A DNA stretch of 64,000 nucleotides from an uncultured delta proteobacterium (GTDB lineage: Bacteria > Desulfobacterota > WTBG01 > CAIYCZ01 > CAIRTM01), in assembly GCA_963804955.1 (NCBI GenBank), contig CAWDSQ010000022.1, positions 32,001-96,000 on the forward strand, read 5' to 3'. Position 1 is the stretch's first letter. Each line of letters opens with the position of its first letter. The notes under the pieces are model-generated. The model had not been told where the DNA came from. It was given only the letters and a program-made list of their open reading frames with translations, and made no database searches. Below are positions 27,536 to 64,000 of the stretch, piece after piece. A program made the translations under genes and the position numbers.

Positions 27536-29878
27536 GTGAAGAAGTTTTCAGAACTTATCGTGCGTCACAGGGTAAGTATCCTGATCCTCATCGGTCTGAT
27601 CACAGCCTTTTTTCTGTATGAATGCACACATCTTACCCTGAAGGCCGACTTTAACAGCCTTCTCCCGCAAAAACATCCATTCATAAAAGTTCACAATATG
27701 ATCCGCAATATTTTCGGCGGCGCCAACCAGGTGCTCATCATGGTGCAGGTGCGCAAAGGAGATATTTTCAACCAGAAGACTCTGGAAAAGGTTCAGTGGA
27801 TTACCCGCGAAGCTGAAAAGATACCCGGGGTCGATCCTTACAAAATAAGGTCCCTGGCTTCATCAAAGCTTAAAGATTTTAAATTCAGCGCAGGGTCAAT
27901 GGCCATCAATACGCTCATGTTCCCCGATCTGCCCAAAAACGACCAGGAGATGCAGGAGCTGAAGGACAAGATTTTCAGCAATCCGCGATACTATGGGCAG
28001 TACGTGGCCTATGACAGTAAAAAAACGCTGGTCATGGTTGATTTTTTTGAACAGGACCTTGATTACAATACTATTTTTAAGATGCTGAGCAGCATACGGG
28101 AGCATACTGAAGACGAAAACCACATCATAAGCATTGGCGGTGAGCCCATGCACATGGGCTATGTCTATCAGAGCACGCCGGAGGTGCTGGGTATCATTGC
28201 CGTTACGATATGCGCAGTTATTATCATGCTGTTTGTCTATTATCGAAGCATGCGTGCTGTTATTGCCCCTCTGCTGGCTGCGGCAATAAGCACGGTCTGG
28301 GGTTTGGGCTTTATGGGGCTTATGCGCTATAATCTTGACCCCCTTATTCTGGTGATTCCGTTTTTTCTCGCTCTCATGACCGTGCCCCATGCCATGCAGT
28401 GCATCACCCGGTTTATGGAAGAGTATGAACAAGTAAGAAATATGAAACAAGCGGCAGCTCAGACCATTGAGGCGCTGTTTCTCCCCGGGGTCACCAGTGT
28501 GGTCACTGATGCCCTCGGCATAGCCCTGGTTGCTATCGCGTCCATACCGATTCTTATTGATATTGCCATTACATCGGTATTCTGGTGTATTGCCGCCGCG
28601 ACTATTCTTTCTCTTATTATGACCCCCCTTCTTCTTTCGTTTATTCCTGAAAGCAAACGGCTGCGAAAAGCTTTGGAAGAAAAAATGGAGCACAATCGCA
28701 GTGACTACCGGACAAGATTGCTCTCGGCAATCGGAAACTGGATACCGCAAAAGGGGAAATGGTATATTGTTATTCTTGCCGTTATTATTTCAAGCGTGGG
28801 AATCTTTTATGCCCGGCAGATTCAGATCGGGGATTTCATGCCCGGCTCGTCAATACTCTGGCCTTTTCACCGGTATAATAAAGATGCCTTCAGGATTACA
28901 TTCAGCATACCGCTGCTCAACCCCCTGTATATCATCGTTGAGGGAACTGAAGGCGGTTATATATCCAAGGGGTCTACGCTTCGCGAGATTGACAAATTTC
29001 AGCGCTACATTGCCAAACACGACAGAGTGATGTTCACCTATTCGATTGCAAACAATCTCCCCGGTTTTTTTATGTCGTCCAATGAAGATGACCCCCAGTG
29101 GTGCCATCTGCCCAAGGATGACAGGACATTGAGCTTTATCTGCCGAAGGCTTCTCTATGCCGGCGAGCCCGGCACCTGGGACCGCTATGTGGATATGCAG
29201 GACAAATACGGGAATATCGTTGTGTACTGCAGGGACAAAATGCCCGCAACCGTTCAAAGCATTACAGACTATATAAAAAAATATCTGGAACAGACACCCG
29301 GCCCGCCGGGAGGCAAGTATCTGCTGGCAGGCGGAGCTGTGGGTGTTCAGGCGGGCATTCGCGACGTGATTGCCGATTCGCAGGTGTTAAACCTGGTGCT
29401 GGCGCTTTCAGGAGTATTTCTTTTCTGCGTGCTTGTTTTCAGGTCACTGTGGGCAGGGGTTATTCTCGTTCTGCCACTTACGGTTGCCAATGTCATCACC
29501 TTTGCCCTTATGGGCGCTTTTCATATCGGATTAACGACCAACACGTATCCCATAGCATCCATCGGCATCGGGTTCGGCGTGGACTACGGCATCTATCTGA
29601 TGAGCCGCCTTATTGAGGAGCGGAAAAAAGGATACGTGCTTAACGAGGCAATCCGGCAGGCTCTTACAACAAGCGGCCGGGCAGTTTTTCAGGTTTCGAC
29701 AACCCTGACCGTCGGGCTTCTGCTGTGGATGTTTTCAGCCTTGAAGTTTCAGGCCGAGATGGGCGTGCTGCTGGCGATTCTGCTGCTTCTAAATATGCTC
29801 GGCGCAATTTTTCTTGTGCCGACCCTGATTTGTTTTATAAAGCCGAAATTCCTTATGCGGATACAGAAGGCGGCATAA
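27536..29878 (+). CDS. MMPL/RND-superfamily transporter
   Basis: 780 aa with two repeats of TM + periplasmic loop + 5 TM, FGGANQV, IGIGFGVDYGIY, TSGRAV, LKFQAEMG. Confidence 0.9.
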   Translation: MKKFSELIVRHRVSILILIGLITAFFLYECTHLTLKADFNSLLPQKHPFIKVHNMIRNIFGGANQVLIMVQVRKGDIFNQKTLEKVQWITREAEKIPGVDPYKIRSLASSKLKDFKFSAGSMAINTLMFPDLPKNDQEMQELKDKIFSNPRYYGQYVAYDSKKTLVMVDFFEQDLDYNTIFKMLSSIREHTEDENHIISIGGEPMHMGYVYQSTPEVLGIIAVTICAVIIMLFVYYRSMRAVIAPLLAAAISTVWGLGFMGLMRYNLDPLILVIPFFLALMTVPHAMQCITRFMEEYEQVRNMKQAAAQTIEALFLPGVTSVVTDALGIALVAIASIPILIDIAITSVFWCIAAATILSLIMTPLLLSFIPESKRLRKALEEKMEHNRSDYRTRLLSAIGNWIPQKGKWYIVILAVIISSVGIFYARQIQIGDFMPGSSILWPFHRYNKDAFRITFSIPLLNPLYIIVEGTEGGYISKGSTLREIDKFQRYIAKHDRVMFTYSIANNLPGFFMSSNEDDPQWCHLPKDDRTLSFICRRLLYAGEPGTWDRYVDMQDKYGNIVVYCRDKMPATVQSITDYIKKYLEQTPGPPGGKYLLAGGAVGVQAGIRDVIADSQVLNLVLALSGVFLFCVLVFRSLWAGVILVLPLTVANVITFALMGAFHIGLTTNTYPIASIGIGFGVDYGIYLMSRLIEERKKGYVLNEAIRQALTTSGRAVFQVSTTLTVGLLLWMFSALKFQAEMGVLLAILLLLNMLGAIFLVPTLICFIKPKFLMRIQKAA

Positions 29879-30021
29879 CAGGAAGTGCGCACGATGCGTG
29901 CAGAGGAATGGTACATGCCTATGGCCTTTTTTAATGATCCCAAAATAAACGGGAGCGCCCATGATGTATCGCTCAGGAAGGGTACACAAACAAGGCAACA
30001 CGAGAAAAGGGGGATGATGGT

Positions 30022-31647
30022 ATGAAAGCAAAACAGGTAGTTGTTTTTTCCATGCTGGCGCTTATGGGCGCTTATTTCATTCTGCCCGGATACTGCTTTG
30101 CCTCGCTGATGCTTTTTGATGACAAGCTGCGGGTCAAGGGGTCGGTATATGAATTCGGCATGTACATGACCAAGCTCACGCCGAATGACAAGCAGTACAA
30201 CAATAATAACTGGGGCCTGATGCGGACGAAGGGAACGCTGGAGCTTCTGTACAATGCCTATGAGCAGGGAGATACCAATTTCAACCTGTTCGGCTTTTTT
30301 CAGTATTGGCATGAGTCGTCTTCCGATTTTGACGGGGCAATCAAAGACTCCATGACCTCGCGCTCGCGCCGCCATTACCAGGGGCCCAATGAGCGGGCCG
30401 ACGACTGGATCAATGAGCTGTATGCCGACTTCTATAAAGGGCCCTGGAACATCCGGGTCGGCAAGCAGATCGTTTTCTGGAGCGAAGTTGAGATGGTGCG
30501 CACCATCGACCGGATCAACCCGCTTGACCTGCGGTATACAACACCCGGCATCGACCCCTTTGATGAAATGAAGCTGGGGCTGTGGATGGTGCGGGGCTTT
30601 TACACCTCGGACCTGCCGGGGCAGCTTGTCTTTGAAGGCATCTGGACTCCTGATTTCCAGCGGGTCAGAACACCGCTCGAAGGGACCGCCATGGGCAGCA
30701 ATCCCGGGCCGCAGGGCCCCGAGAAGCTCAGGCCCCGCGCCTACGGCCAGAATGCCGCTATCGACACCATGTTCCGCCATGACATGCCGGATATCAGTTT
30801 GAAAAATACAACGTTTGCCTTCAGGGTCAAGGGCACGTCGCAGCTGCCGTACAACTATCTTTTGGACTGGTCTCTGAGCTGGTATCACGGCATGAACACA
30901 ACGCCGGTTGCCGAGGGCGATACGCTCGGCTATCCCAACTCACTGAACCTTAATACGAACACCTTAAACGGCTATCTGGACAATCTTGCCGTCAGCCGCG
31001 TGTTCGGCGCAAAGCACCTGCCCGGCTTGAACAATAAAGATTTCTGGGACTATAAATATTTTGACGCCGTCGGCGCAAGCGGCCAGACCTTTGTCCCCTG
31101 GCTGAAAGGCGTGCTGCGCGGCGAGGTGTCCTATGAAATCGGGGTGCCCGAAAACAAGGCATTTACAAAAGATATTGACGACAGCCCGTCATACTCAAAG
31201 GTGATAACCGGCACGACGGAACGCGACCAAATCAATGTCGGAATAACTTTTGACCGGCCCCTCAGGTGGGAGTGGCTGCAAAATCAGACCTGGCTGGCCT
31301 CGAGCGGCATTATAGACACCACGGTCGGCTGGTTCGCCCAGCGGCGCCAGGGAGATGTTAAGCGCATACGAAGAACATTCGGCTATTATGACCGGTCAGC
31401 CAGTCAAACTGGACCCTCACTATGCGGGGCAATTTATGGCATAACGAACTGTATCCCTACGGTGCGTTTTCTCTACAATTCAAGAAACTGGGGCTATGGT
31501 GTGGCTGCGCTGCGCTATCAGCCGGGCAAGCATATGCGCTATGAAATGGGTTACACATGGTTTTTCGCCAAAGAACCCTGGGATTCACCGGAAGCATACA
31601 GCGAAAACAAGGATTTTGCCTATTTCAGGATAGGCTATGAATTCTAA
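30022..31647 (+). CDS. DUF1302-like outer-membrane beta-barrel protein
   Basis: Signal peptide, INELYAD...IRVGKQIVFW, DRINPLDLR, terminal RIGYEF. Context between MMPL and DUF1329. Confidence 0.75.
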   Translation: MKAKQVVVFSMLALMGAYFILPGYCFASLMLFDDKLRVKGSVYEFGMYMTKLTPNDKQYNNNNWGLMRTKGTLELLYNAYEQGDTNFNLFGFFQYWHESSSDFDGAIKDSMTSRSRRHYQGPNERADDWINELYADFYKGPWNIRVGKQIVFWSEVEMVRTIDRINPLDLRYTTPGIDPFDEMKLGLWMVRGFYTSDLPGQLVFEGIWTPDFQRVRTPLEGTAMGSNPGPQGPEKLRPRAYGQNAAIDTMFRHDMPDISLKNTTFAFRVKGTSQLPYNYLLDWSLSWYHGMNTTPVAEGDTLGYPNSLNLNTNTLNGYLDNLAVSRVFGAKHLPGLNNKDFWDYKYFDAVGASGQTFVPWLKGVLRGEVSYEIGVPENKAFTKDIDDSPSYSKVITGTTERDQINVGITFDRPLRWEWLQNQTWLASSGIIDTTVGWFAQRRQGDVKRIRRTFGYYDRSASQTGPSLCGAIYGITNCIPTVRFLYNSRNWGYGVAALRYQPGKHMRYEMGYTWFFAKEPWDSPEAYSENKDFAYFRIGYEF

Positions 31648-31663
31648 CACAAAGGAGAAGGTC

Positions 31664-32927
31664 ATGAAAAAAACCGCCGCTCTACTGCCGTATCTTATCG
31701 CCGCGATGCTCTGCTGCAGCCTGCCGTGCAGCGCAGCAGAAGTAAAATTTCCGACCCTCTCCTATGAGGGCGCAGAGCTTGCCAAAGTGAAGGAATGGGA
31801 GAAAACCTGGGCCGGCAAGAAGGTAACAACGGAAAATATTGATCAGGTAAAAGAGTTTCTCCATGAAGCTGTGTACAAGGCGATGAAAGACCCAGCCATT
31901 TTCGGGGCGAAATCTCTCTGGTTCGATATAGTTCCGTACCGGCCCTATGAGGTGTCCAAAGGGCTTATTGAGGCGACACAGAAATATGCCCCTGCAAGCA
32001 AGCTTGACGCAAAAGAAGATCTTGTCGGCTACGGTGATGTTGCAGGCTACCCTTTCCCGCAGCCGAAAACCGGTATTGAAATGGCATGGAATTTTGATTC
32101 CAATACCCGGGGTGACAGCAGCTACCTGTTTCATGGCGGGACAGTTGTTGACTGCAGAACCGGACATGAGCGTGAAGCAGGGCATTTGCGGTGGGAGCTT
32201 TCCTGGCTGGGCCGCTACGACGTGCCGCCGATTCCTAAAATACCGAAACAGCGAAAATACGCGCGACATTGCCCGGTCATTTTTTCAGCGCCATACAGCG
32301 CCTGCCGACTTTGTTGATACCACCATGCTTGAGATCAGATATAAGGATAACCGGGAAGAGGATCTCTGGGTGTATACGGCCATGTTCAGGCGCGTACGGC
32401 GCTATGCCACCAGCCAGCGGACGGACACGATCGACGGCACGGACATGATCTATGACGATCAGGAAGGATGGTACACGCATCCTACCCGCAACACCTACAC
32501 TGCCAAAGGCAGGGCCGATCTGCTGGTGGGCAGGCATCAGGACCCGAAAAACGTGCAGCGCGAGCACGGCCAGGGATTCTGGAACGGCTTTCAGAGAGAG
32601 CGGGTCAACCACTGGGTTGTTGAGGTAATCAATAAGGACCCGAGCTACATTTACAGCAAGCAGCTATGGTATCTGGATCCCGAGACATGGCAGATGAATT
32701 TCAAGGTGGTCTACAATCGTCAGGGCGAGCTCTGGAAGATGTATGAAATAACCTATAACGAAGCTCCCTCATATGGCGGGGGCAAAACATCAATGCCCAG
32801 TTCCGAGCATATTGTCGATTTTATCCGCCGCCATGGCAGCCCCGGCAACCGGGAGATAAAGGGTGTGGGCATCACTATTCCCCTGAAGCAGTTTACGACC
32901 AGAGCGCTGCAGGAAAAGTCGTATTAA
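31664..32927 (+). CDS. DUF1329 family periplasmic protein (frameshift near 32250)
   Basis: VTTENIDQVKEFL, GYPFPQPKTGIEMAWN, DLWVY...RRVRR, YSKQLWYLDPETW, YNRQGELWK. Confidence 0.85.
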
Positions 32928-33003: not shown

Positions 33004-34062
33004 ATGGGCAAAAAAATAAAAGTTGAAAGTGTCTTTTTGCTGGCGCTGCTTGTGCTGGTGCCGTGCTGCAGCAAGTTTGACCGCTCGAAGATCAAGATGC
33101 CGAAGTTCAGCTTTGTTACTTCGGAAAATGTGCACAGCATCGCATACCTTGATGCGCAGCATGCCTGGATAAGCGGCAACTACGGGACAATCTGTTTCAG
33201 CTCCGACGGCGGCAAAACCTGGGAAAAGCAGGAAAGCGGCCTTAAGGATGTGCTGCTGGGCAGCATCCGGTTTGTCAATCAGCGGGAAGGATGGGCTGCG
33301 GGAGTAGGCGGGACGATAATTCATACAACTGACGGGGGCAAAACCTGGAAGCCGCAGAAAAGCGGGACAGATAAAGACCTGCTTGACCTTTTCTTCCTTG
33401 ACAGCCGCAACGGATGGGCTGTCGGAGAGTTCGGCACGGTTATTCACACGGACAATGGCGGCAGGACCTGGTCTGTGCAGCATGAGCCGGAGGATAAGAT
33501 TTATAATAATGTTTTTTTTACTGACAACAGCACGGGATGGATTGTGGGAGAGTTCGGTACGATTCTTCGCACCGAGGACGGCGGGGCGACCTGGCAGCCT
33601 CAGGAATGCAGGGATCTGGCGCCGGCTGCAAGCGAAACAGACTGGGAAAAGCCCCTGCCCGCGCTGTACGGGATTTATTTTGAGAACAAGGACCGGGGTT
33701 GGATAGTCGGGATGGACGGTGTGATACTGAAAACGGCCGATGCTGGAAACACCTGGAGCAAGGTTGTGTCAGGCACGGATAAGCCCCTGTATTCGCTTGT
33801 GGTCAGAGGATCACAAGGATGGGCGATTGGCAATAAAGGGGTTTATTTAATGAGCAGCGATGGCGGGACCACCTGGCAGGTTAAAGAAGATGCCATAAAA
33901 ACAAAGTTCTGGCTCAGGAAAGTAGCCTTCTGCGATGAGCTGCATGGCCTTGTTGTCGGAGCGCGGGGCACCATCGTCCTGTCCGATGACGGCGGCGCGC
34001 ACTGGAATATTATCTCGGGCTTTACCTATGATATGCCGGAATTCGGACTGGCGGATTTTTAG
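33004..34062 (+). CDS. YCF48-like BNR-repeat beta-propeller (probable lipoprotein)
   Basis: Many GW.VGE.GT I.HT.DGGKTW repeats. N-terminal LLVLVPCC. Confidence 0.9.
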   Translation: MGKKIKVESVFLLALLVLVPCCSKFDRSKIKMPKFSFVTSENVHSIAYLDAQHAWISGNYGTICFSSDGGKTWEKQESGLKDVLLGSIRFVNQREGWAAGVGGTIIHTTDGGKTWKPQKSGTDKDLLDLFFLDSRNGWAVGEFGTVIHTDNGGRTWSVQHEPEDKIYNNVFFTDNSTGWIVGEFGTILRTEDGGATWQPQECRDLAPAASETDWEKPLPALYGIYFENKDRGWIVGMDGVILKTADAGNTWSKVVSGTDKPLYSLVVRGSQGWAIGNKGVYLMSSDGGTTWQVKEDAIKTKFWLRKVAFCDELHGLVVGARGTIVLSDDGGAHWNIISGFTYDMPEFGLADF

Positions 34063-34073: not shown

Positions 34074-34733
34074 ATGAAAAAAGCAGCTAAAAGTACGATG
34101 CACATAGCAGTTCATGCATTGGCAGCGAGCATCTTCATTTTTCTTCTGTACATGGTGACAGGCGCGGCCGCAGAGACGGTTATAACCGATGCGTCAATTC
34201 AGGGCCAGAAACCGCTTCTTGTCTATTTTTCACGGGGCGGCAATACCAGAATCGTCGCACGCGAGCTTGCCGCAGACCTTGGCGCCGACAGCGCTGAGAT
34301 AAAGTCAAAGCTGAACCGGCAGGAATTCAGCGGGATCATAACCTGCCTGCTCGACCAGCTGCTTGACCGGGACGACGATCCTGAGGCGATACCTGTTGAC
34401 ATAGCCTCCCATAACCCGGTGATTATTGCGTCGCCCACATGGCTTAAGACGCTTTCCTCTCCTGCCCGGACATTCATACAGCAGCATGATTTCAAGGGCA
34501 AGGATGTCTATATTGTGCTGACCTATAACGGCAAGGCCAGGGATGATATTGACGCGAAGCTCAAGGAAATAATTGCCCCCCGGGGCGGAACCTTTGGCGG
34601 ATTGTTTACGCTGATAGCAAAGGGCAAGGATGAGCAGGGGCTGCGGGATGAAGCAAAAAAGCTTGCTGAAAAAATGCGGCCCCGTCTCGCGGCAAAAAAA
34701 TCCGGCATCGTTTCACATACCCCTGTTAGATAA
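34074..34733 (+). CDS. Flavodoxin-like protein with N-terminal signal/TM segment
   Basis: LVYFSRGGNTRIVA FMN-phosphate loop, IIASPTW, preceded by a hydrophobic stretch ending AAAE. Confidence 0.8.
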   Translation: MKKAAKSTMHIAVHALAASIFIFLLYMVTGAAAETVITDASIQGQKPLLVYFSRGGNTRIVARELAADLGADSAEIKSKLNRQEFSGIITCLLDQLLDRDDDPEAIPVDIASHNPVIIASPTWLKTLSSPARTFIQQHDFKGKDVYIVLTYNGKARDDIDAKLKEIIAPRGGTFGGLFTLIAKGKDEQGLRDEAKKLAEKMRPRLAAKKSGIVSHTPVR

Positions 34734-34797: not shown

Positions 34798-36123
34798 ATG
34801 GCCCAAAAATTTGATCTTGTTGTCGTCGGCGGTGGGACTTCCGGTCTTGAGGCTGCAAAAACCGCGGCGGAAAACGGTTTACGTGTGGCGCTTCTTGAGC
34901 GCAAGACTCATCCTGCCAAGATTCAGCGGTCATGCGCCCAGATGTTTCTGCTGAACATGGACTCCTTCTACGAAGAGCACATGTATTTTTCAAAAGAAAA
35001 GAAAAAATGGGTATTCCCGGTCAATAACTTTTCCGTCAACTACAGCGGCAACTACCGCGAGTTTTATGCCTGCCACTTCATTTCCCCCAATGCCACGGAC
35101 CGCATTGAGCTTGGAGATTACGAGCTGAATGCATCAGGCAGCGGTACTCCTGCAGTTGTATTTGATAAAGAAGCGCTTCTTGACGGACTTTTTGAAGAGG
35201 GGCAAAAGGCCGGCGTGCACTATTTTCTTGAAAGAAATGTTACCTATGTAAGCCAGGTATCCGGCGGGGTGCAGATTAAGACCGCAGAAGGCGATGTGCT
35301 TGAAGGCGCTTTTTGTATTGCAGCAGACGGCATCAATTCACGTTTGGCAAAAATAACCGGCCTGAACAAGGAGCGTCTTTTTATTAATACGAGAAAATCC
35401 ATCAGCCATTATGTCACGGGCGTCGAGTTCGAGCGCTCCGAGGCGATTTTTCTTGGCATAAGCTGGGACAAAGAAAAGCTCGGGCCCGTGCCGTTCTGCC
35501 TGCTGCCCAGTGTGTACCGTGATGATGAGTACTGGTTTTTCGTGAGCGGCGACGAGCAGTTTGAGTTTCTGACCAAACGAAGCAATTTTAAAAGGTGGTT
35601 CCCGAGGCTTGAGATCACCCATACCCGCGCAAACGTTGTCAATAACTGGAGCCCGGCGCGGGAGCCGTTTAAGGACAATGTTCTGTTTGTCGGCGACAGC
35701 TGCTGGTTTTCAGAAGCGGAAAACTCGGGCGCTCTGCTTTCAGGCCATAAGGCCGCACATGCCGTATGCGAAGCGCTGCATCGGGGCATGCCCAACAGGG
35801 ATGGCATCATGAACTACATCAGCTGGTGGCAGCAGAACTGGCTTGCAACCCACGATTACCGCGATTTCCTCTGCTATCCGCTTTTTAACCGGATGTTTAC
35901 TGAAGATGAGTATAACTACCTTCACAATATTGTTACTCAAAAGCTCCCCTGGACAATTAATCCGTTCAAGCTGTACAGCAGGCTCATGACAGGCCTGCAG
36001 CCCCACCTTGAGCGTGTAAAACAGGAGCGGCCGCAGCTTGCGCAGAAGATTGCCATGTTCCGGCCGGAGCAGGTCCTGCAACTCATAAAACCGGCAGCAC
36101 GGATGGGGTTTCCGAATGTGTAG
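34798..36123 (+). CDS. FAD-dependent oxidoreductase, GGR/FixC-like, paralog 1
   Basis: DLVVVGGGTSG, QRSCAQM, IAADGINSR, VGDSCWFSEAENSGALLSG, QERPQLA. Confidence 0.85.
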   Translation: MAQKFDLVVVGGGTSGLEAAKTAAENGLRVALLERKTHPAKIQRSCAQMFLLNMDSFYEEHMYFSKEKKKWVFPVNNFSVNYSGNYREFYACHFISPNATDRIELGDYELNASGSGTPAVVFDKEALLDGLFEEGQKAGVHYFLERNVTYVSQVSGGVQIKTAEGDVLEGAFCIAADGINSRLAKITGLNKERLFINTRKSISHYVTGVEFERSEAIFLGISWDKEKLGPVPFCLLPSVYRDDEYWFFVSGDEQFEFLTKRSNFKRWFPRLEITHTRANVVNNWSPAREPFKDNVLFVGDSCWFSEAENSGALLSGHKAAHAVCEALHRGMPNRDGIMNYISWWQQNWLATHDYRDFLCYPLFNRMFTEDEYNYLHNIVTQKLPWTINPFKLYSRLMTGLQPHLERVKQERPQLAQKIAMFRPEQVLQLIKPAARMGFPNV

Positions 36124-47993: not shown

Positions 47994-47999
47994 ACCAGC

Positions 48000-53671: not shown

Positions 53672-53707
53672 GGCTTGAGAACAACCGATCAGAGCGGAAA
53701 TAAGCGT

Positions 53708-56271: not shown

Positions 56272-56315
56272 CAGCTTCTGCAGCAACAAAAAATATTTTA
56301 TCAAAGGAGATTGTC

Positions 56316-56815
56316 ATGCGATTGCAAAAACCGGATACACCGATGCAGCGCCGAGCAGCGGCTGGAGAAAATACTGCCCATGATGGTGAGCGACAGGATA
56401 AACCTCTATCTTGATCTGAAAAAAGTGCTGGGTGAGGAGAAGGGAACAGAAGTTTTTAAGAAACTTTATGACGAGGGCATGAAGCGCATCCGGAAAAATT
56501 TTCCCGGCGGCAAGCTTCCCATCGGCCAGCTTATGAAGCGGGAACTCATAAGCTTTCCCATGATCGGTTTTGAACTGCACATCGATCAAGGAGATCGAGA
56601 ACGGCGAGGAGGTGTATTACGAGCATCTCACGAAATGTCCGTTTCTGGACATGGCGAAAAAAATGGGTATTGCCGAGCTCCCCTGCGACTTTATCTGCGG
56701 CTATGATGTTGAAGTGGCCCTTCGCGACAAGCGCGGGCGGTGGGAGATCAAGTCAAGGATGGGTGATGGCGCTTCCGAGTGCCAGTTCCGCATCAGGGAC
56801 TGGAAGGACGAGTAG
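56316..56815 (+). CDS. ATC-hydrolase / V4R-like small Cys-containing protein (frameshifts)
   Basis: LGEEKGTEV, KCPFLD...PCDFICGYD...RMGDGASECQF pattern. Confidence 0.65.
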
Positions 56816-56869: not shown

Positions 56870-57049
56870 TTGATAAAGATAGATAAAGAGAAATGCTCCG
56901 GGTGCTGCGGGTGCGTTGATCACTGCCCGGTGGCAGCAATTAATGTAATCGATGATGTGGTGGTAGTGGATAATGATCTGTGCATGGAATGCCTGATCTG
57001 CACGAAGGTCTGTCCGTTGCGGGCGCCGCAGGAGACGGTGGAGGCATAA
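56870..57049 (+). CDS. 59-aa 2[4Fe-4S] ferredoxin (TTG start; absent from the ORF track)
   Basis: GAGGAGG RBS, then MIKIDKEKCSGCCGCVDHCPVAAINVIDDVVVVDNDLCMECLICTKVCPLRAPQETVEA*. Confidence 0.92.
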   Translation: MIKIDKEKCSGCCGCVDHCPVAAINVIDDVVVVDNDLCMECLICTKVCPLRAPQETVEA

Positions 57050-57086: not shown

Positions 57087-58418
57087 ATGGCAGAATTATA
57101 TGATGTGATAATTGTAGGAGCCGGTCCAGCGGGAGCCATGGCTGCAAAGATCGCCGGGGAGAACGGTCTGAAGGCCGCCATAATCGAGCGCAAGACCGAT
57201 ATCAGCGCGATCCGCAGGATCTGTACCATGATCGTGAATGTAGATGAGGAGAACGTGGGAGATATTCTCACGTACAGCCACAAGACAAAACGGTTTATAT
57301 TTCCGCACAATGGCTTTTCCTTTAAATATGACGGGCCCACGCGCAACGTGTACGGGTTTCATATAATAACCCCCGGGGGCATGCAGGTTGAGATGGGCAA
57401 TATTGCCCGTGGGAAGGCTGAGGGAAATGTTGTGGGTCTGATGATCCACAAGGGGCATATGTGCCAGGGGCTGGTGAATGAAGCACAGCAGTACGGCGTT
57501 GAAGTGTTTACCAACAGCAATATCAACAGCGTGAGGAAAGAGGCCGGGTATGTGGCGTTGCTGGACAACCGGGGCAATGAGTACCGGGGTAAATTCGTAA
57601 TAGCGGCGGACGGGGTAAATTCACGGATAGCGCGGCTGCTGGGGCTGGACAAGGAGCGGGTGTTCATCGGGACGTACCTGGATATGGCGCGGACCTATGA
57701 GGGCTATGAGATTCCCGATGAAGAAAGACTGATGTTCGGGCTGGGGTGGCCAACGGGCATATCGCTGGCGCCGGAAATGACGCCCGGGTCATCTGCATGT
57801 GGCGGCGACGAGCTATAATTACGAAAACGATCTTGACGCGCAGATAGAGCAGTTTGTAACCACGGGCACGTATGCCAAGTGGTTTAAGAAGGCGCGGGAG
57901 GTTGGGCACCGGACAAGCTGCGTGTCAAATATTGCAACCCCCATTATTATGCCGTTTAAGGATAATGTGCTGGTGGTCGGGGGACTCGTCGTGGATGCAG
58001 GAGACGGGGATCAACGGAGCGCTTATGCCGGGATGGAGCGCAGCCAATGCGGTAACCGAGGCGATCTTGAAGAATGAAATCAATAAAAACGGAATAGCGA
58101 GCTATCTGGCCTGGTATGACAAGTTCTGGTACCAGCCCTTCGGGAAACGGATGGCAAGCAGCGGTGGCGCGGACATGAAGGATTATCTGTCAGGGGAGGA
58201 TATTGACTATCTGGCGGGTCTGGTTGAGGAGTCGATGCCGGCCACCATGAACTTTTTTACAATTATGAAGCAAATCGGGACGACGTTTGCAGCACTTGCT
58301 GCCGCGGATACAGGATGAGCGGCCCGACATCATGCAGAAGCTGCTGGGGTACCGGTCGCATCCGCGGGCGCTGGCCCTGGCTAAACGCCGCAACGAAGGC
58401 TGCGCTATCGTGACTTAA
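57087..58418 (+). CDS. FAD-dependent oxidoreductase, GGR/FixC-like, paralog 7 (three frameshifts)
   Basis: YDVIIVGAGPAG, RRICTM, IAADGVNSR, GDSSWMQETGINGALMPG, QDERPDI. Confidence 0.87.
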
Positions 58419-58518: not shown

Positions 58519-58968
58519 ATGGATGCAAAAAAGGTGGATGCAATAATTGAAAGGCACAAGGCGGAGAGAGGCGCGCTCATTTCCATGCTGCATGCCATTC
58601 AGGATGAGGAAGGGTATGTGCCAGCGGACGCAATGAGCTACCTGAGCGATAAACTGGCTACGCCGCTTGGGGAAATTTCCCGTGTGGCAACGTATTTTGA
58701 CAAAGCGTTCAAACTGGCGCCGAAAGAGGAGCATACGGTCCGGGTCTGCCGGGGCACAACCTGTCATGTGAAGAAGTCGGATGAATTGTACAAAGAGATT
58801 TCTGACGAGCTGAGCAAGGACGGGAAAAGCTTTCGGTTTTCTTTGGGGCAGGCTCGATGTCTGGGATGCTGTACGTCATCGGGTCCGGTGGTGGAAATCG
58901 ATGGCGAGGTATACGAACAGGATTCCGCAAAAAGCACCATCATCAAACTGAAAGGCGAGATGAAATGA
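58519..58968 (+). CDS. NuoE/HydC-like [2Fe-2S] subunit, module 2
   Basis: LHAIQDEEGYVP, VCRGTTCHV, RCLGCC. Confidence 0.88.
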   Translation: MDAKKVDAIIERHKAERGALISMLHAIQDEEGYVPADAMSYLSDKLATPLGEISRVATYFDKAFKLAPKEEHTVRVCRGTTCHVKKSDELYKEISDELSKDGKSFRFSLGQARCLGCCTSSGPVVEIDGEVYEQDSAKSTIIKLKGEMK

Positions 58969-60693
58969 AAATAGAGACTATAAAAGATTTAAACAAACTC
59001 AAGGGTGCGGGAGAGAAGATGCTGCGGCCTGAAACCATCCGGGTACAGGTGGGGGCCTCGTCATCTGCTCTTTCAAAGGAAGCCGCTCAAGTCGGCGAGC
59101 AATTAAAAAAAGAGCTTGGGAAGCGCGGCATTGAGGCTGTGGTTGTTTCCGTGGGATGCCTGGGCCTGAGCACGCAGGAACCCATAGTGGAGGTGATTGC
59201 GCCGGGCAAACCCAAGGTCACCTACGGCCGGATCACCGCCGGAATGGCGCCGCTGCTGGCAGGGGCCATCGCAGAAGGCAAAGTGCTGAAAAAGCACGCC
59301 CTGTATCGAACCGATGAGGAGGAACTGCTCTGCAGCACAACCGGGTTCAGCTATGGCAAGGCATCGGCTGAGTTCAAAGGGCTTCCCACGGCAGGCGAGT
59401 TCAAGTTTTTGAAGCCGCAGGTGCGCATTGCGATGAGAAATTCAGGCCAGATCAATCCGGAGAGCATCGAAGAGTATGCAGCCAGGGGAGGGTATGCAGC
59501 GCTGCATAAGGCTTTGACGAAGATGGATCCTGATGCAGGTTATCGATACGGTTATCAAGTCCGAGCTCAGAGGCAAGGGCGGCGGCGGATTTCCGGCGGG
59601 GCAGAAGTGGAAGAGCTGCCGCGATGCCAGGGGCAAGGATAAATACGTTATCTGCAACTGCAGCGAAGGCGATCCCGGCATTGGCATGCACAAGAGCCTT
59701 ATTGAGTCCGACCCCTACAGCATTATTGAGGGATTGACCATTGGCGGGTATGCTATCGGCGCCCGGGAAGGCTATATCTACCTGCATCACGGGTACGCCG
59801 CGGGCAGGCAAAAGCTGAAAAAGGCAATTGACCGGGCAACGGAGTGCGGGCTGCTGGGCGAGAATATTTTTGGAAGCGGGTTTAGCTTCACCGTCACTTT
59901 AAAAGAGGGCGCCGGTGCGTATGTGTGCGGCGAGTCGACGGCCCTGATGGCATGCATTGAAGGCCGGGCCGGAGAGCCCCGTCCGAAATATATACACACG
60001 GCGGAAAAAGGGGTGTGGGAAAAGCCCACGAATCTCAACAATGTGGAGACGTGGTGTAATGTCGCGCCGATTATTTTTCGGGGCCCTGAGTGGTTTACAA
60101 AAATCGGCACGAAAGCAAGCAGAGGGACAAAGGTTATTTCCCTCACCGGCAATATCAACACACCCTGCCTTGCAGAAGTCCCCATGGGCACAACGCTGAA
60201 AACCGTTATCACGAAGCTGGGCGGCGGCATGCCCAAGGGCAGTACGCTCAAGGCGATCGGGATCGGCGGACCGCCGGCCGGCATGCTGCCGGCGTCGCTT
60301 GCCGATACGCCGATTGAATTTGACGCGCTCTGGAAGGCCGGGTCCATGCTGGGCTCCGGCGGCATGATTGTTATGGATGACAAGAACTGCATGGTCGACA
60401 TGACGCGCTTTTTTCTGAAGTTCCTCGAAGAGGAATCCTGCGGCAGGTGCTTTCCCTGCCGGGAGGGGATCAAACGGATGCGCGAAATTGTTGAAGGCAT
60501 CAGCATCGGGATCGGAAAACCGGAACATTTTGCGCTGCTTGAGGAGCTTATGGAGTGCCTGTCGCAGACGGCACTGTGCGATCTGGGCAAATCCGCACCC
60601 AATGCGGTGCGCTGCGCGCTGCGCCATTTCAAGGAGGAATTTGATACCCATATTGAGCGGGAAGTATGCCCGGCTAAACGATGTGCTATATAA
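58965..60693 (+). CDS. Divergent NuoF/HydB-like subunit, module 2, without C-terminal ferredoxin domain (frameshift near 59536)
   Basis: SELRGKGGGGFP, CNCSEGDPGIGM, GAGAYVCGESTAL, NNVET, GGPPAG, ESCGRCFPCREG. Ends CPAKRCAI*. Confidence 0.9.
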
Positions 60694-60721: not shown

Positions 60722-61475
60722 ATGCTTAAACTAACTATAGATGGAAAAAATATTCAGACGGAAAAAGGGACCACCATTCTTACAGGCGGCAAAAGCTAAC
60801 GGGATTGCTATCCCGACCCTGTGCCATCATGAAGGGCTGAGCCCCCTGGCCAACTGCAGGCTGTGCGTGGTTGAGGTAACCCAGAACAACAGGACGCGGG
60901 TGGTCACCTCCTGCAATTACCAGGTGCAGGAAGGGATGCAGGTGGCGACCCAAACCGGGCGGATTGTCTCCATGCGAAAGACAATCATAAAGCTGATCAT
61001 GGGCAGATCGCCGAATGTGAAGATTGTCAGGGACCTGGCCGCTGCCATGGGGATTGAAAAGACACCGTTCACGCTGGAAAACGATAAGTGCATCCTGTGC
61101 GGTTTATGCGAGCATGTGTGCAGCGAGTATATCGGCGCCCATGCAATAACGTTCACGGGTCACGGGACCGGAAAATTTGTTTCAGCGCCCTTCAGCGTAT
61201 CCTCCAGGGACTGCATCGCCTGCGGAGCCTGTGTTGAGGTGTGCCCCGCCAGGTGCATTGCCATGAAGGATGTTGAAGATGCCAAGACCTATTATTGGGC
61301 TGAGTCTGAGACGGTAGGGCCGGCACGGGTTGTGTACAACTGGAATGCGCGGGTTGCGTGGAAGAAGTGCTCGAAGTGCGGAAACGCTTTTCCTCCGCCG
61401 TCGGTACTGCCGTACCTGGACAAGGGCGAAGCCCTGCCGAAGAAATTTTTTGATATCTGCCAGAAGTGTAAGTAA
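60722..61475 (+). CDS. NuoG-N-terminus-like Fe-S protein, module 2 (N-terminal frameshift)
   Basis: MLKLTIDGK, IPTLC...CRLC...TSC, CILCGLCEHVC, CIACGACVEVCP, terminal CSKC...CQKC. Confidence 0.88.
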
Positions 61476-61516: not shown

Positions 61517-61696
61517 TTGATAAAGATAGATAAAGAGAAATGCTCCGGGTGCTGCGGGTGCGTTGATCACTGCCCGGTGGCAGCAATTAATGTAATCGAT
61601 GATGTGGTGGTTGTGGATAATGATCTGTGCATGGAATGCCTTATCTGCACGAAGGTCTGTCCGTTGCGGGCGCCGCAGGAGACGGTGGAGGCATAA
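61517..61696 (+). CDS. 59-aa 2[4Fe-4S] ferredoxin, same protein as 56870..57049
   Basis: Two synonymous differences only (GTA/GTT, CTG/CTT). Confidence 0.92.
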   Translation: MIKIDKEKCSGCCGCVDHCPVAAINVIDDVVVVDNDLCMECLICTKVCPLRAPQETVEA

Positions 61697-61733: not shown

Positions 61734-63063
61734 ATGGCAGAATTATATGATGTGATAATTGTAGGAGCCGGTCCAGCGGGAGCCATGGCTGCAAAGATCG
61801 CCGGGGAGAACGGTCTGAAGGCCGCCATAATCGAGCGCAAGACCGATATCAGCGCGATCCGCAGGATCTGTACCATGATCGTGAATGTAGATGAGGAGAA
61901 CGTGGGAGATATCCTCACGTACAGCCACAAGACAAAACGGTTTATATTTCCGCACAATGGCTTTTCCTTTAAATATGACGGGCCCACGCGCAACGTGTAC
62001 GGGTTTCATATAATAACCCCCGGGGGCCTGCAGGTTGAGATGGGCAATATTGCCCGTGGGAAGGCTGAGGGAAATGTTGTGGGTCTGATGATCCACAAGG
62101 GGCATATGTGCCAGGGGCTGGTGAATGAAGCACAGCAGTACGGCGTTGAAGTGTTTACCAACAGCAATATCAACAGCGTGAGGAAAGAGGCCGGGTATGT
62201 GGCGCTGCTGGACAACCGGGGCAATGAGTACCGGGGTAAATTCGTTATAGCGGCGGACGGGGTAAATTCACGGATTGCGCGGCTGCTGGGGCTGGACAAG
62301 GAGCGGGTGTTCATCGGGACGTACCTGGATATGGCGCGGACCTATGAAGGCTATGAGATTCCCGATGAAGAAAGACTGATGTTTGGCCTGGGGTGGCCAA
62401 CGGGCATATCGCTGGCGCCGGAAATGACCCCGGGTCATCTGCATGTGGCGGCGACGAGCTATAATTACGAAAACGATCTTGACGCGCAGATAGAGAAATT
62501 TGTAACCACGGGCACGTATGCCAAGTGGTTTAAGAAGGCGCGGGAGGTTGGGCACCGGACAAGCTGCGTGTCAAATATTGCAACCCCCATTATTATGCCG
62601 TTTAAGGATAATGTGCTGGTGGCGGGGGACTCGTCGTGGATGCAGGAGACGGGGATCAACGGAGCGCTTATGCCGGGATGGAGCGCAGCCAATGCGGTAA
62701 CCGAGGCGATTTTGAAGAATGAAATCAATAAAAACGGAATAGCGAGCTATCTGGCCTGGTATGACAAGTTCTGGTACCAGCCCTTCGGGAAACGGATGGC
62801 AAGCAGCGGTGGCGCGGACATGAAGGATTATCTGTCAGGGGAGGATATTGACTATCTGGCGGGTCTTGTTGAGGAGCCGATGCCGGCCACCATGAACTTT
62901 TTTACAATTATGAAGCAGATCGGGACGACGTTTGCAGCACTTGCTGCCGCGGATACAGGATGAGCGGCCCGACATCATGCAGAAGCTGCTGGGGTACCGG
63001 TCGCATCCGCGGGCGCTGGCCCTGGCAAAACGCCGCAACGAAGGCTGCGCTATCGTGGCTTAA
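61734..63063 (+). CDS. FAD-dependent oxidoreductase, GGR/FixC-like, paralog 8 (duplicate of paralog 7; one frameshift near 62937)
   Basis: ORF 61734..62963 plus tail LPRIQDERPDIMQKLLGYR...AIVA* in the shifted frame. Confidence 0.88.
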
Positions 63064-63134
63064 GCTCGCTAAAATTCAATAGTAACAGAGCAGTGCAGGC
63101 ACAACACAGTATGTTACGCAGGGAGAGTTTTGAA

Positions 63135-64000
63135 ATGGCAAATCAGCTGTATGCAGACATAGCAAAACATACGCAGGGAAAGCATATTATGCTGGTAGGT
63201 TCTTCCGGTAATATCGGCGGGAAAGCCCTTTCAATACTTTTGCAATACGGGAAAGCCGCATCAATCACCGCCTTTGATAAAAGAGCGCCGAAAATAAAGG
63301 AACTTCCCGAATCGGTTAAAGTATGCAGCGGAGATCAGGGTGATATTACCAGTGCTGATGCGGTTGAAGCGGCGATGCAGGGCAATACGGTGGTCGTCTG
63401 CGCCATAGGCGTCCCCCGTTATTTAGCGCCGGGTGAGAAAAAGCTGACCCCTGATGAAATAGAGCGGCAGGGCATGCTGCATATTGTTGATGCGGCAAAA
63501 AAGACAGGGGTGCATCAGATTGTCTATATAAGCGCCCTGGGGGTTGCCCGGGGCGATAAGATTCCTGCATTTCATCTGGCGCACACAGCTAAAAGGCAGG
63601 CTGAGGATATGCTGAAAAAGTCTGGAATCGCCTATACGATTCTTCGGCCGTCAGGATATTATTTTGACTTTCGCGAGCTGCTGGCAGCGGCGGTTGCCGG
63701 AAGATATCATGTGGTTGATGAAGGTCTGGCGCGCGTTCAGCCGATTCATCATGAGGATATGGCCGATATTCTTATCGCATCAATCAACAACAAAAAAGTG
63801 GAGAAACAAGGTCATTGCCGTGGGCGGCCCTGAAATATTCTCCTATGCTGAGCTGGGTAAGGTGTTCGGTAGCGTGCTGCAGACCGAGGTTAATGTAATT
63901 CATTTAGCGCCTGAAAAGTACAAAAAAGAATATTTTAACAGTGATCTTATCCTGTTCAGAGCCACTTCGGATAGTATTCTGACCAAAGAAGAACTGAGCG
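63135..64000 (+). CDS. Atypical SDR / NAD(P)H-binding protein B (frameshift near 63810; runs off the window)
   Basis: LVGSSGNIG, GDIT, YISALG, AKRQAE, YTILRPSGYY, VQPIHHEDMA. Confidence 0.82.

Follow-up and report, generated by a model that had tools for sequence, protein, structure and literature searches.

We analysed 64,000 nucleotides of DNA (hereafter the window; positions 32001-96000 of contig C22) from an uncultured delta proteobacterium whose metagenome-assembled genome (MAG) comprises 4.26 Mb in 36 contigs and is 87% complete. The window contains a co-oriented island that extends from 27536 to about 64604, ending just past the window edge, and holds roughly 35 genes in about 37 kb, all on the + strand. 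Its main parts are an envelope cassette, eight flavoproteins (FP1-FP8) with the fold of geranylgeranyl reductases (GGR), three small ferredoxins (Fd1-Fd3), two NuoEFG-type modules and a trimer of the type FAD/CCG/FAD. We read the island as a MarR-inducible modular system in which electrons from NADH and ferredoxin would be passed to flavoproteins that reduce lipophilic substrates not activated by coenzyme A (CoA), with the cassette handling traffic through the envelope, and we give this reading an even chance of being right. What this analysis computed are the genes present and how their linkage is conserved, the domains of Bfu type, the fold shared with GGR and, as a prediction, the docking of ferredoxin.

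Each part belongs to a known family; the combination of a Bfu core, PorB/PorD proteins without thiamine pyrophosphate (TPP), mini-ferredoxins, a GGR-fold family and 'Nanopod'/'Magic'-type modules under MarR was not found described. A literature search that included Syntrophus, Syntrophales, Smithella and Desulfobacterota gave no description of GGR-like flavoproteins together with NuoEF or Bfu. An earlier note on this DNA, made from its letters, had likewise known no named pathway of this composition. This held for the island as a whole and not for two of its blocks, which resemble the 'Nanopod' and 'Magic' clusters of anaerobic benzene degraders. In keeping with that note, no close homologue mapped to a characterised pathway in the PDB, NCBIfam or the literature.

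Linkage of the modules in the window and among relatives

The earlier note had placed all genes from 27536 to the right edge on one strand and had listed them in order. Both points were borne out, as all open reading frames (ORFs) between 27536 and 64000 with Pfam or NCBIfam support lie on the + strand and the two databases gave the same order. The tally of eight flavoproteins was right as well, FP6 being recognisable only by comparison with its intact G008 orthologue. Three genes had been overlooked (U291, U184 and an ATC_hydrolase-like gene; Table 1), and a 417-amino-acid (aa) 'unknown' at 52224-53474 proved to be the C-terminal portion of FAD-oxidase 2. Cumulative GC skew climbs unbroken from 0.15 to 1.95 over 26-64 kb.

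Linkage was followed in 30 relatives ranging from the same genus to the same class (31 genomes with our own), and locus orders were obtained by tblastn mapping of loci fetched from them (genomes, loci and contigs are designated by G, L and C numbers). The flavoprotein family is present in 25 of the 30 relatives (26/31 with our own genome), with 3-22 matches per genome, and the 541-aa DUF1302-like protein of the cassette was matched in 29 of the 31 genomes, our own included. In G001, which belongs to the same genus, the order is MMPL, DUF1302-like, DUF1329, BNR, six flavoproteins, MarR2, U291, U184, PorD, PorB, NuoE and NuoF, up to the contig end. G006 has the flavoprotein array followed by PorD-PorB-NuoEFG, and G007 the cassette and the array followed by Fd-FAD/CCG/FAD-SDR (SDR, short-chain dehydrogenase/reductase). 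G008 carries U184-PorD-PorB-NuoEFG1-FAD/CCG/FAD-Fd-FP6-NuoEFG2-Fd-FP8-SDR-MarR. The modules adjoin in conserved order in at least eight related genera; the blocks are a recurrent association rather than a chance row, as the earlier note had supposed, and the co-occurrence in other genomes that it had proposed to look for was indeed found.

A DUF1302-like match lies within 10 kb of a flavoprotein match in at least 15 of the 30 relatives, and 11 of the 30 have FDBR-like, flavoprotein and DUF1302-like matches on one contig within ~20 kb, both counts being taken among the matches listed. Since the relatives are not independent of one another, these counts describe the linkage and should not be read as a statistic. 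One array member of the relatives (FPx, located between MarR1 and FP3) is missing from the window, which has gained the flavodoxin-like gene, not found in L011, L007, L008 or L013, as well as the SDR1-ATC-Fd2-FP7 segment.

The same genome holds further modules: PorD-PorB-NuoEFG on contigs C1, C7, C24 and C25, about six cassettes, and about seven FAD/CCG/FAD trios. Two more mixed islands, at C7:374-426 kb (374001-426000) and C20:66-96 kb (66001-96000), share flavoproteins, PorD/PorB, Bfu-type NuoEFG, mini-ferredoxins, an Ame-like cassette, FAD/CCG/FAD trios, ATC_hydrolase-like genes and SDRs. They also hold EtfAB (C7), a tungsten-type aldehyde:ferredoxin oxidoreductase, a PNPOx-like protein, relatives of ferredoxin-dependent bilin reductase (FDBR, PF05996), and PadR, MarR and TetR regulators. 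Twenty metatranscriptome contigs with 90-99% identity fall on NuoE1, the trimer, Fd1-FP6 and NuoE2; this is a weak hint of expression, because DNA carry-over into the libraries is possible. In freshwater and sediment runs, 0.05-0.35 of the window's sampled words were present, which we do not take as evidence of habitat.

Flavoproteins, electron-input modules and envelope cassette

To place the flavoproteins among known folds, an AlphaFold (AF2) model of FP4 was built from 42 sequences (mean pLDDT 91.5). Its best PDB neighbour is the Thermoplasma GGR 3OZ2 (TM 0.77, 18% identity), followed by flavin halogenases, the Sulfolobus GGR (TM 0.62) and FixC (TM 0.62). By sequence, FP8 matches 3OZ2 at E 1e-15, FP4 gave no GGR match in the PDB, and the FixC chain 7koe_C was found at E 8.8e-7. 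The island proteins thus have the two-domain FAD fold and the FAD motifs in common with the archaeal GGRs (Thermoplasma Ta0516, 3OZ2; Sulfolobus GGR, 3ATQ/4OPx), from which they differ in identity (15-18%). In the source annotation they are named 'digeranylgeranylglycerophospholipid reductase' or 'flavin-dependent dehydrogenase', both automatic labels.

Among the 42 aligned members, GxGxxG and the GD motif are invariant, and the cysteine of an R-x-C motif is kept in at least 90%; by position only, it may correspond to the flavin-adjacent Cys47 of the Thermoplasma GGR. The paralogues share only ~30% identity. The FAD motifs, R-x-C and AADGxNSR are conserved between them, as are a number of Tyr, Lys, Arg, Trp and Glu positions, whereas the cavity segment varies from paralogue to paralogue, which suggests that they differ in substrate or in the position of attack. 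A HMMER search over 1.84 billion cluster representatives found 181 proteins at E≤1e-10, 69 of them at E≤1e-30. When 121 genomes from across the phylum were searched with a profile, at most 14 candidates being scored in each, the family was found in four, our own included, all of one order-level group. Judged by these searches, the flavoproteins are a small family confined to this lineage.

The three ferredoxins are of the 2x[4Fe-4S] type, ~58-67 residues long, and each is encoded directly upstream of a flavoprotein gene. This pairing is kept in G008, G022 and G030, and at loci L009, L010, L015 and L018. A ferredoxin gene is reportedly found next door to the Methanosarcina GGR, and FixC-FixX likewise has its ferredoxin gene adjacent; in contrast to the latter system, the island has no EtfAB genes, although the paralogous C7 island does. 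Complex prediction with the Fd and FP8 of G030 gave a median ipSAE of 0.77, compared to 0.00 for the best of three controls. Three runs agreed in at least 94% of contacts, and the partner had a pLDDT of at least 86. The ipSAE mark, reached by 116 of 157 solved complexes and by 2 of 215 mismatched pairs, is only roughly applicable here, as custom alignments were used. The predicted interface comprises the AADGxNSR motif, which is invariant in 42/42 members, array proteins included, and a segment beside the conserved cysteine. With three Fd-flavoprotein gene pairs, their retention in relatives and the predicted docking, the ferredoxin linkage put forward in the earlier note appears plausible.

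Of the two NuoEFG-like modules that had been recognised, both are present, but only the first is of the bifurcating Bfu type. According to the published definition, BfuB contains FMN, SLBB, NuoF 4Fe-4S and ferredoxin-type 4Fe-4S domains, BfuC is a NuoE-type 2Fe-2S protein, and BfuA has at least 2Fe-2S and 4Fe-4S (PMC9304861). In module 1 (45621-48749) all of these domains were detected on the window pieces, SLBB weakly (E 4.8e-4). In G008, NuoF1 has an intact orthologue of 636 aa in which the FMN domain, NuoF 4Fe-4S and a C-terminal double Fer4 were found, SLBB being the one Bfu domain not detected at the 1e-4 limit. This orthologue matches the solved BfuB chains of NfnB (9n5u_B), NiFe-Bfu (7t2r_B) and HydB (7q4v_B, 8a6t_B and 7p5h_B) over most or all of its length at E 1e-176 to 1e-207. 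Judged by its domains, module 1 has a genuine core of Bfu type (HydABC-like), in which BfuA is short. Module 2 (58519-61475) falls outside the definition: NuoF2 ends at NADH_4Fe-4S, its N-terminal domain lacks the Cys residues of NuoF1, and its orthologues have no room for an additional domain. Lacking both the C-terminal Fer4 and the N-terminal Cys, it would make module 2 a plain, non-bifurcating NADH dehydrogenase.

Two POR-like proteins adjoin module 1. PorD-like passes the cut-off of the PorD/KorD subfamily (77.2 vs 60.05 bits) and is the only POR subunit to do so. PorB-like reached 76.7 of the 405 bits needed and had no Pfam family at E≤1, TPP included; inspected by eye, it keeps the Cys pairs, and the TPP/Mg motif is replaced. 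No PorA or PorG (alpha/gamma) genes were found among the island ORFs. The pair thus falls outside the 2-oxoacid:ferredoxin oxidoreductases (POR/KOR/VOR), and, as there is neither PorA/PorG nor a detectable TPP domain, module 1 does not appear to be a pyruvate enzyme. Instead, PorD and PorB together are probably an Fe-S adaptor with three clusters.

The Por-Bfu predicted by Schut et al. contains the full set of four POR subunits, and they assign 'Bam' to the BfuB clade that also holds Por and Wor (PMC9304861). They describe Bfu enzymes as reversible, linking three redox partners, and state that 18 of 57 Bfu clades have no assigned third substrate. Module 1 shares with Por-Bfu and Bam-Bfu the BfuB domain set, BfuC, a minimal BfuA and adjoining extra subunits, here PorD/PorB. 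It differs from Por-Bfu in the absence of PorA/PorG and TPP and in its presumed third partner, a flavoprotein family absent from that paper, in whose text 'geranylgeranyl' and 'FixC' occur zero times.

The trimer was characterised through its G008 orthologues, which are 495 aa (FAD_binding_4 and FAD-oxidase C), 431 aa (two CCG domains) and 556 aa (FAD_binding_4 only) long. Nearest to the first in the PDB are LctD and D-lactate dehydrogenases. The FAD domain of the third is nearest to the VAO/PCMH group (VAO, vanillyl-alcohol oxidase; PCMH, p-cresol methylhydroxylase), including p-cresol methylhydroxylase and eugenol and vanillyl-alcohol oxidases (E 1e-25 to 1e-15), with glycolate oxidase at 1e-11. 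The CCG protein is nearest to 9ojn_A and HdrB. The same architecture, FAD-(Fe-S, two CCG)-FAD with a PCMH-type FAD domain and FAD-oxidase C in one FAD subunit and the FAD domain alone in the other, has been described in benzene degraders. In a sulfate reducer grown on benzene, BzS1_12970/80/90 is reported as a heterotrimeric GlcDEF-like flavoprotein making up about one fifth of the covered proteome (PMC13416013). 'Magic' proteins 24-26 are described as the most abundant three in ORM2, with CoA ligase, CoA transferases and MaoC dehydratases encoded on their flanks, and Table 3 of that paper gives only 22-29% identity to a freshwater-sediment MAG (PMC13101534). This type of trimer has been proposed as the anaerobic benzene-activating enzyme (PMC13416013, PMC13101534). 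The island trimer resembles it in gene order and domain make-up, compared by published descriptions only. It differs in being flanked by the Bfu module and Fd-flavoprotein pairs and in having about seven paralogous trios in the genome. A link to ORM2 or BzS1 was also sought through the names of homologues; all 519 proteins at E≤1e-30 were generically named, and no link could be read from them.

The envelope cassette has the make-up of AmeABCD of Castellaniella defragrans, where AmeA is a DUF1302 protein, AmeB DUF1329/LolA-like, AmeC COG4447 and AmeD an HAE3 RND pump (PMC6394551). MMPL, DUF1329 and PSII_BNR scored above the Pfam cut-offs. The label 'DUF1302-like' used in the earlier note found no support in Pfam, where the 541-aa protein had no match even at E≤1; gene position and 27 of 30 language-model neighbours in the ESM Atlas, which are DUF1302 clusters, speak for it. 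As reported for C. defragrans, AmeABCD is induced on monoterpenes, and its deletion leads to lower monoterpene tolerance and more Nile Red accumulation (PMC6394551). Price et al. describe cofitness of the four genes in several Proteobacteria, propose export of an envelope component, and cite p-cresol induction of family members and a link to phenanthrene catabolism (bioRxiv 10.1101/072470). In the benzene-fermenting Desulfobacterota ORM2, the 'Nanopod' quartet is presented as one of the two top-expressed clusters, with the transport direction left open (PMC13101534).

AmeABCD and the ORM2 'Nanopod' thus have the same four kinds of protein side by side, and both are tied to hydrocarbon or terpene metabolism. 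The island differs in its order (D-A-B-C), in a DUF1302 member too diverged for Pfam and in the flavoprotein array directly after the cassette; the comparison is by protein kinds only. It had been suggested that the island imports its substrate. This is not favoured, since AmeABCD, the sole tested relative of the quartet, acts in efflux and tolerance and characterised HAE3 pumps export lipids, namely hopanoids (PMC6394551). By this analogy the cassette is more likely to serve efflux than import. A paper on a limonene methanogenic enrichment (PMC12583861) showed no Ame-type or flavoprotein link to the island.

Other reductases and remaining features of the island

Two further kinds of reductase were counted in the sample of this non-phototrophic class. 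FDBR (PF05996) scored above the cut-off in 25 of the 31 genomes, with 6-19 matches each, and among 14 control genomes in Synechococcus only. Of the 31 genomes, 25 have both FDBR and the flavoprotein family, five have neither of the two, and G008 has the flavoproteins only. The lacking genomes form two families, so this co-occurrence represents one or two evolutionary events. Examples in our genome are C32:76205-76849, C14:218774-219349, C5:99458-100018 and C22:17173-17844. FDBR genes often lie a few kb from DUF1302-like and flavoprotein genes, and on contig C20 one is fused to a ferredoxin. The pre-PcyA FDBRs of heterotrophs are described in PMC10151467 and PMC13446030 as single genes in heme-oxygenase/globin clusters rather than as such expansions. 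Pairs of nitrogenase-like genes (PF00148) were found in 21 of the 31 genomes, in seven relatives beside a DUF1302-like or flavoprotein match (for example C7:49360-51797 in our genome, G018:C3:156922-164141 and G017:C8:84658-91756). These pairs may represent a third type of reductase working at low potential within this toolkit.

The features of the island are listed in Table 1. On the left, the 708-bp spacer follows an FG-GAP gene on the - strand, and the genes of the left flank (pili, purine synthesis, glycosyltransferases and the FG-GAP protein) are unrelated. On the right, SDR2 ends at ~64101 and is followed, up to about 64604, by a 165-aa membrane protein without any Pfam match at E≤1. Beyond this border lies an 863-aa PAS histidine kinase on the - strand.

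Table 1. Features of the island and their positions in the window.
Feature	Position	Strand	Evidence
Probable promoter spacer, 708 bp, AT-rich, three short palindromes	26828..27535	.	GC 0.445 in 26-28 kb bin
RND transporter, MMPL/HAE3 type (AmeD / 'Nanopod' protein 37 position)	27536..29878	+	Pfam MMPL 114.7 bits, above cut-off; TIGR00921 HAE3 200.7 bits, below cut-off of 351.9; G001 orthologue 93% identical
DUF1302-like putative outer-membrane protein, 541 aa (AmeA position)	30022..31647	+	Gene position; ESM Atlas neighbours
DUF1329/LolA-like periplasmic protein (AmeB position), frame break near 32240	31637..32927	+	Pfam DUF1329 on both pieces; intact 429-aa orthologue spans two frames
BNR/Ycf48-like beta-propeller (AmeC position)	33004..34062	+	Pfam PSII_BNR 165 bits
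Flavodoxin-like, N-terminal signal or membrane anchor	34074..34733	+	Flavodoxin_4 25.1 bits (cut-off 24); hydrophobic N-terminus
FP1, GGR-fold flavoprotein, intact	34798..36123	+	
FP2, GGR-fold flavoprotein, two frame breaks	36213..37543	+	
MarR1 regulator	37601..38056	+	Pfam MarR 47.6 bits (cut-off 24.6)
FP3, flavoprotein, frame break near 38250	38141..39515	+	
FP4, flavoprotein, intact; modelled member	39577..40932	+	AF2 mean pLDDT 91.5
FP5, flavoprotein, frame break near 42165	41003..42326	+	
MarR2 regulator	42340..42828	+	Pfam MarR 45.7 bits (cut-off 24.6); 168-aa orthologue maps from 42340
U291, polytopic membrane protein, 291 aa, no known family	42890..43765	+	No Pfam match at E≤1
U184, exported protein with signal peptide, 184 aa, no known family	43837..44391	+	213 homologues, none with a Pfam domain
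PorD-like 2x[4Fe-4S] protein	44431..44709	+	TIGR02179 77.2 bits (cut-off 60.05)
PorB-like protein, no detectable TPP domain; probably Fe-S adaptor	44667..45584	+	PRK11865 76.7 bits (cut-off 405)
NuoE1 (BfuC-like), one frame break	45621..46083	+	Pfam 2Fe-2S_thioredx
NuoF1 (BfuB-like): N-terminal Cys domain, FMN, 4Fe-4S, C-terminal 2x Fer4; at least three frame breaks	46080..47993	+	
NuoG1, short, 250 aa (BfuA/HoxU-like), without catalytic domain	48000..48749	+	Fer2_4 and Fer4 only
FAD-oxidase 1 (FAD_binding_4 and FAD-oxidase_C), one frame break	48894..50382	+	
Fe-S protein, two CCG domains (HdrD/GlcF-like), one frame break	50437..51736	+	
FAD-oxidase 2 (FAD_binding_4 only; FAD domain nearest VAO/PCMH), two frame breaks	51814..53477	+	
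Dispersed intergenic repeat, ~140 nt	53538..53680	.	
Fd1, mini 2x[4Fe-4S] ferredoxin	53708..53911	+	
FP6, flavoprotein, at least five frame breaks; worst preserved gene	53965..55300	+	tblastn with intact G008 FP6 orthologue, E 1e-95
SDR1 (NAD_binding_10/NmrA-like), three frame breaks	55366..56244	+	
ATC_hydrolase-like, Cys-rich, one frame break	56311..56815 (about)	+	Pfam PF14196 29.6 bits
Fd2, mini-ferredoxin, by DNA identity a recent duplicate of Fd3	56870..57049	+	
FP7, flavoprotein, by DNA identity a duplicate of FP8, three frame breaks	57087..58415	+	
NuoE2	58519..58968	+	Pfam 2Fe-2S_thioredx 112.6 bits
NuoF2: FMN, SLBB, 4Fe-4S; no C-terminal Fer4; N-terminal domain without Cys ligands; one frame break	58965..60693	+	
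NuoG2, short (HoxU-like)	60741..61475	+	
Fd3, mini 2x[4Fe-4S] ferredoxin	61517..61696	+	
FP8, flavoprotein, true length ~442 aa, frame break near 62940	61734..63063	+	
SDR2 (NAD_binding_10), frame break near 63795	63135..64000 in window, on to ~64101	+	

MarR1 and MarR2 both have a winged-helix MarR domain above the Pfam cut-off. NCBIfam equivalog labels such as BilQ and HpaR scored far under their cut-offs and were uninformative on the ligand. A perfect 20-bp palindrome at 37560-37579, 22 bp 5' of the MarR1 start codon, is a candidate operator. The same may apply to palindromes upstream of the RND gene (27339, 27381-27403 and 27425-27438) and of U291 (42837-42859). When the spacers were scanned for a shared operator, 10-mers and palindromes gave AT-rich chance overlaps only, and each palindrome was unique.

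U291 and U184 had no Pfam match at E≤1, and the ESM Atlas held no match of at least 0.9 for U184. No fold could be assigned to the U184 model (pLDDT 79.7), whose best matches, OB-like and NigD-like, had Z≤5.7 compared to a chance level of 7-8. In G001, G022 and G030, U291 travels with U184 and the NuoEFG-Fd-FP unit. Paralogues of the ATC_hydrolase-like gene lie on contig C20 beside the ferredoxin-fused FDBR-like gene and on contig C7 beside an SDR. A 64-aa ORF within 29830-30022, between the RND and DUF1302-like genes, may be a small gene; G001 retains it at 72-74% identity, and in the window it is divided between two frames.

The intergenic repeat at 53538-53680 has two hairpins and looks like a miniature inverted-repeat transposable element (MITE) or a repetitive extragenic palindromic (REP) element. 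It recurs at ~20 more places on 13 contigs of the genome with 82-100% identity. Its summed contig depth is 104-624 in three metagenomes, compared to ~5 in adjacent bins, with many loose contig ends. An Rfam scan of the whole window found no family at the gathering score, for this repeat or elsewhere.

Proposed mechanism, rival explanations and meaning

In the mechanism that we propose, as far as domains and gene order can suggest one, the two NuoEFG-type modules would oxidise NADH. Module 1, with its PorD/PorB-like adaptor, would couple NAD(H), ferredoxin and a third partner. The small 2x[4Fe-4S] ferredoxins would dock on the flavoproteins and deliver electrons, and the eight diverged GGR-fold FAD enzymes would reduce C=C or comparably reducible bonds in one or more lipophilic substrates. 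The 'Magic'/BzS1-type trimer and the two SDRs may add further redox steps (carbonyl/alcohol or hydride), and the RND cassette would move substrate or product through the envelope, most likely outward, keeping the membrane clear. Two energetic schemes are conceivable: either exergonic substrate reduction pulls NADH-driven ferredoxin reduction by bifurcation, or reduced ferredoxin pushes a reduction of very low potential, with the second electron dropping to NAD+. Bifurcating substrate reduction is known from the caffeyl-CoA and butyryl-CoA systems, and the second scheme has been proposed for class II benzoyl-CoA reductase. Both would be equally compatible with the sequence. Two features we count toward an inducible or catabolic system: the two MarR genes, one of them after the perfect palindrome, and the absence of CoA ligase, thiolase and hydratase domains from the island ORFs. 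The expression of look-alikes of the quartet and the trimer in hydrocarbon degraders also speaks for the reading.

Several observations weigh against this reading. Which way electrons and transport run, what chemistry takes place and to what class the substrate belongs are our inferences. None of the 25 matches in the genome reached the TIGR02032 (GG-red-SF) cut-off of 158.8 bits, the best scoring 89.1 and the island proteins 27-80 bits, whereas 6 of 14 control genomes pass. YxWxFP(x7-8)GxG in the substrate cavity is the signature motif of GGRs and is visible in the 3OZ2 chain; it occurs in 0 of the 42 aligned members, strict or relaxed, and only a Pro is kept. The earlier label 'GGR-like' therefore stands for the fold and not for family membership. 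Because the family fails these tests, C=C reduction is only an analogy, and a polyunsaturated compound as substrate, as the earlier note had it, is not supported. Moreover, the five array flavoproteins (FP1-FP5) have no ferredoxin gene of their own, and the Fd-FP8 docking score may be partly due to likeness to the solved FixC-FixX complex 7KOE. G007 has no NuoEFG modules beside its array. In G030 and G022, from another family of the class, U291-U184-NuoEFG2-Fd-FP8 forms a self-contained operon amid housekeeping genes, so that modules also occur apart. Unlike the ORM2 'Magic' locus, the island has no CoA ligase, CoA transferase or MaoC among its ORF domains. Finally, mapping of the relatives' intact orthologues located at least 22 frame breaks in the 37 kb, and FP6 may be a real pseudogene.

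We consider it unlikely that the island is biosynthetic, that is, that the flavoproteins saturate a lipid or pigment of the cell itself (polyprenyl, carotenoid or bacteriochlorophyll-type), which the HAE3 cassette would export to the outer membrane in the manner of HpnN and hopanoids. GGR and ChlP are biosynthetic enzymes, the characterised HAE3 proteins are hopanoid exporters (PMC6394551), and Price et al. propose export of a cell-wall component (10.1101/072470). The genome also has a homologue of BCHF, the 2-vinyl bacteriochlorophyllide hydratase family (C24:164062-164469; found in 0 of 14 control genomes), and of ComA, phosphosulfolactate synthase (C30:258129-258850). Both are merely consistent with membership in 'Ca. 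Anaeropigmentia', for which the preprint describes coenzyme M synthesis and bchF, chlP, bchXYZ and chlLNB homologues without a reaction centre, reading the chlP-like and other genes as pigment biosynthesis (bioRxiv 10.1101/2021.03.22.436540). A biosynthetic role fits poorly with 3-22 flavoprotein matches per genome and five to six diverged tandem copies, with two MarR regulators within the island, and with NADH/Bfu modules of the energy-metabolism type. No prenyltransferase, terpene synthase or ChlG-like domain was found in the island, its modules are reshuffled between genera, and the look-alikes of the quartet and the trimer are described as the top-expressed clusters in benzene degraders (PMC13101534).

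Similarly improbable, in our view, is an oxidative role, in which the flavoproteins and the trimer would dehydrogenate or activate a saturated or aromatic hydrophobic substrate and Bfu would confurcate mid-potential electrons with reduced ferredoxin onto NAD+, in the way syntrophs deal with unfavourable dehydrogenations. The reported reversibility of Bfu with its three redox partners (PMC9304861) would permit this, relatives of the trimer have been proposed as benzene-activating (PMC13416013, PMC13101534), and the FAD domains of the trimer resemble those of the oxidative PCMH, D-lactate dehydrogenase and LctD. However, the island has no downstream catabolic genes (CoA ligase, beta-oxidation or ring-cleavage), and by structure the flavoproteins are closest to the GGRs, which are reductases. 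The position of module 2, a plain NADH dehydrogenase, directly upstream of an Fd-FP pair also fits NADH as the donor.

There is less still to be said for a patchwork of independent co-oriented operons (efflux cassette, flavoproteins, NADH modules and a glycolate-oxidase-like enzyme) with no common substrate. Modules are found apart in other genomes, the spacers differ in size, including a 234-bp gap (53475-53708) in which the dispersed repeat sits, and no sequence motif is common to them. Nevertheless, order is conserved in at least eight genera, the genome has two further mixed islands, and the triple linkage with FDBR-like genes was seen in 11 of 30 relatives among the matches listed.

The frame breaks could be real, in which case the island's right half would be an array of pseudogenes decaying in this strain. 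Genes hit by frame changes are DUF1329, FP2, FP3, FP5, NuoE1, NuoF1, both FAD-oxidases, the CCG protein, FP6, SDR1, ATC-like, FP7, NuoF2, FP8 and SDR2, and FP6 alone has at least five. Long-ORF cover in the 53-58 kb bin is 0.55, the minimum of the contig and below the 5th percentile of the genome, 0.576; as a measure of decay, long-ORF cover was too blunt for anything but flagging this bin. Other public runs contain short-read contigs that match the window at ~99% identity and have gaps against it in intervals with frame breaks: one in 48690-49408, three in 51038-52269, two in 51165-51797 and one in 58846-59560. In five intervals with intact frames they have none. As only intervals and not exact gap positions are given, this is agreement and not proof.

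Housekeeping genes in the window outside the island are broken too. A GspD-type secretin gene at 4551-6605, for example, lies in two separate ORFs, probably owing to a further frame break of the assembly. In G008 every orthologue of the island genes is intact. Fd2-FP7 (56836-58420) and Fd3-FP8 (61483-63065) share 98.7% DNA identity (1564/1584 bases, 18 substitutions and two one-base indels), and on this identity Fd2-FP7 is a recent duplicate of Fd3-FP8; G008 has one Fd-FP copy at this place. Both copies in the window have their C-terminal frame break in common, which argues against decay. Since the short-read gaps coincide with the breaks, housekeeping genes are also split and the G008 orthologues are intact, most of the frame breaks are probably assembly errors, and decay of the right half has a poor chance of being the explanation.

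If the island is indeed a MarR-controlled reductive system, it would be a candidate third partner for the unassigned Bfu clades, namely flavoprotein reductases wired via the PorB/PorD adaptor and mini-ferredoxins. It also bears on anaerobic benzene activation, to which the 'Magic' trimer and the 'Nanopod' cassette, found on separate islands in slow enrichment cultures, are so far the only leads. Here, look-alikes of both sit in one co-oriented MarR-controlled island, conserved across several genera of sediment bacteria and with intact orthologues. The Fd-FP8-NuoEFG2 unit, a seven-gene operon in the sister family, is small enough to be reconstituted as a possible NADH-driven reductase for unactivated lipophilic substrates.

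A bolder idea, which we regard as doubtful, is that this class of uncultured Thermodesulfobacteriota lives partly by a 'double-bond respiration' whose substrates would be lipophilic compounds of the sediment, for example hydrocarbons, isoprenoids and pigments. Bfu would split the electrons of NADH, one branch going to exergonic hydrogenation or dearomatising reduction by the GGR-fold flavoproteins and the other to reduced ferredoxin for energy, while RND would clear the products. If this were true, the FDBR-like and nitrogenase-like reductases elsewhere in the genome would serve the same purpose, and the FAD/CCG/FAD trimer would connect them with the still unsolved question of how benzene-type compounds are activated anaerobically. 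The 'chlP', bilin-reductase and BchXYZ-like genes would then be a catabolic reductase toolkit and not remnants of bacteriochlorophyll biosynthesis, which offers a testable alternative to the published 'pigment biosynthesis' reading in non-phototrophic Desulfobacterota.

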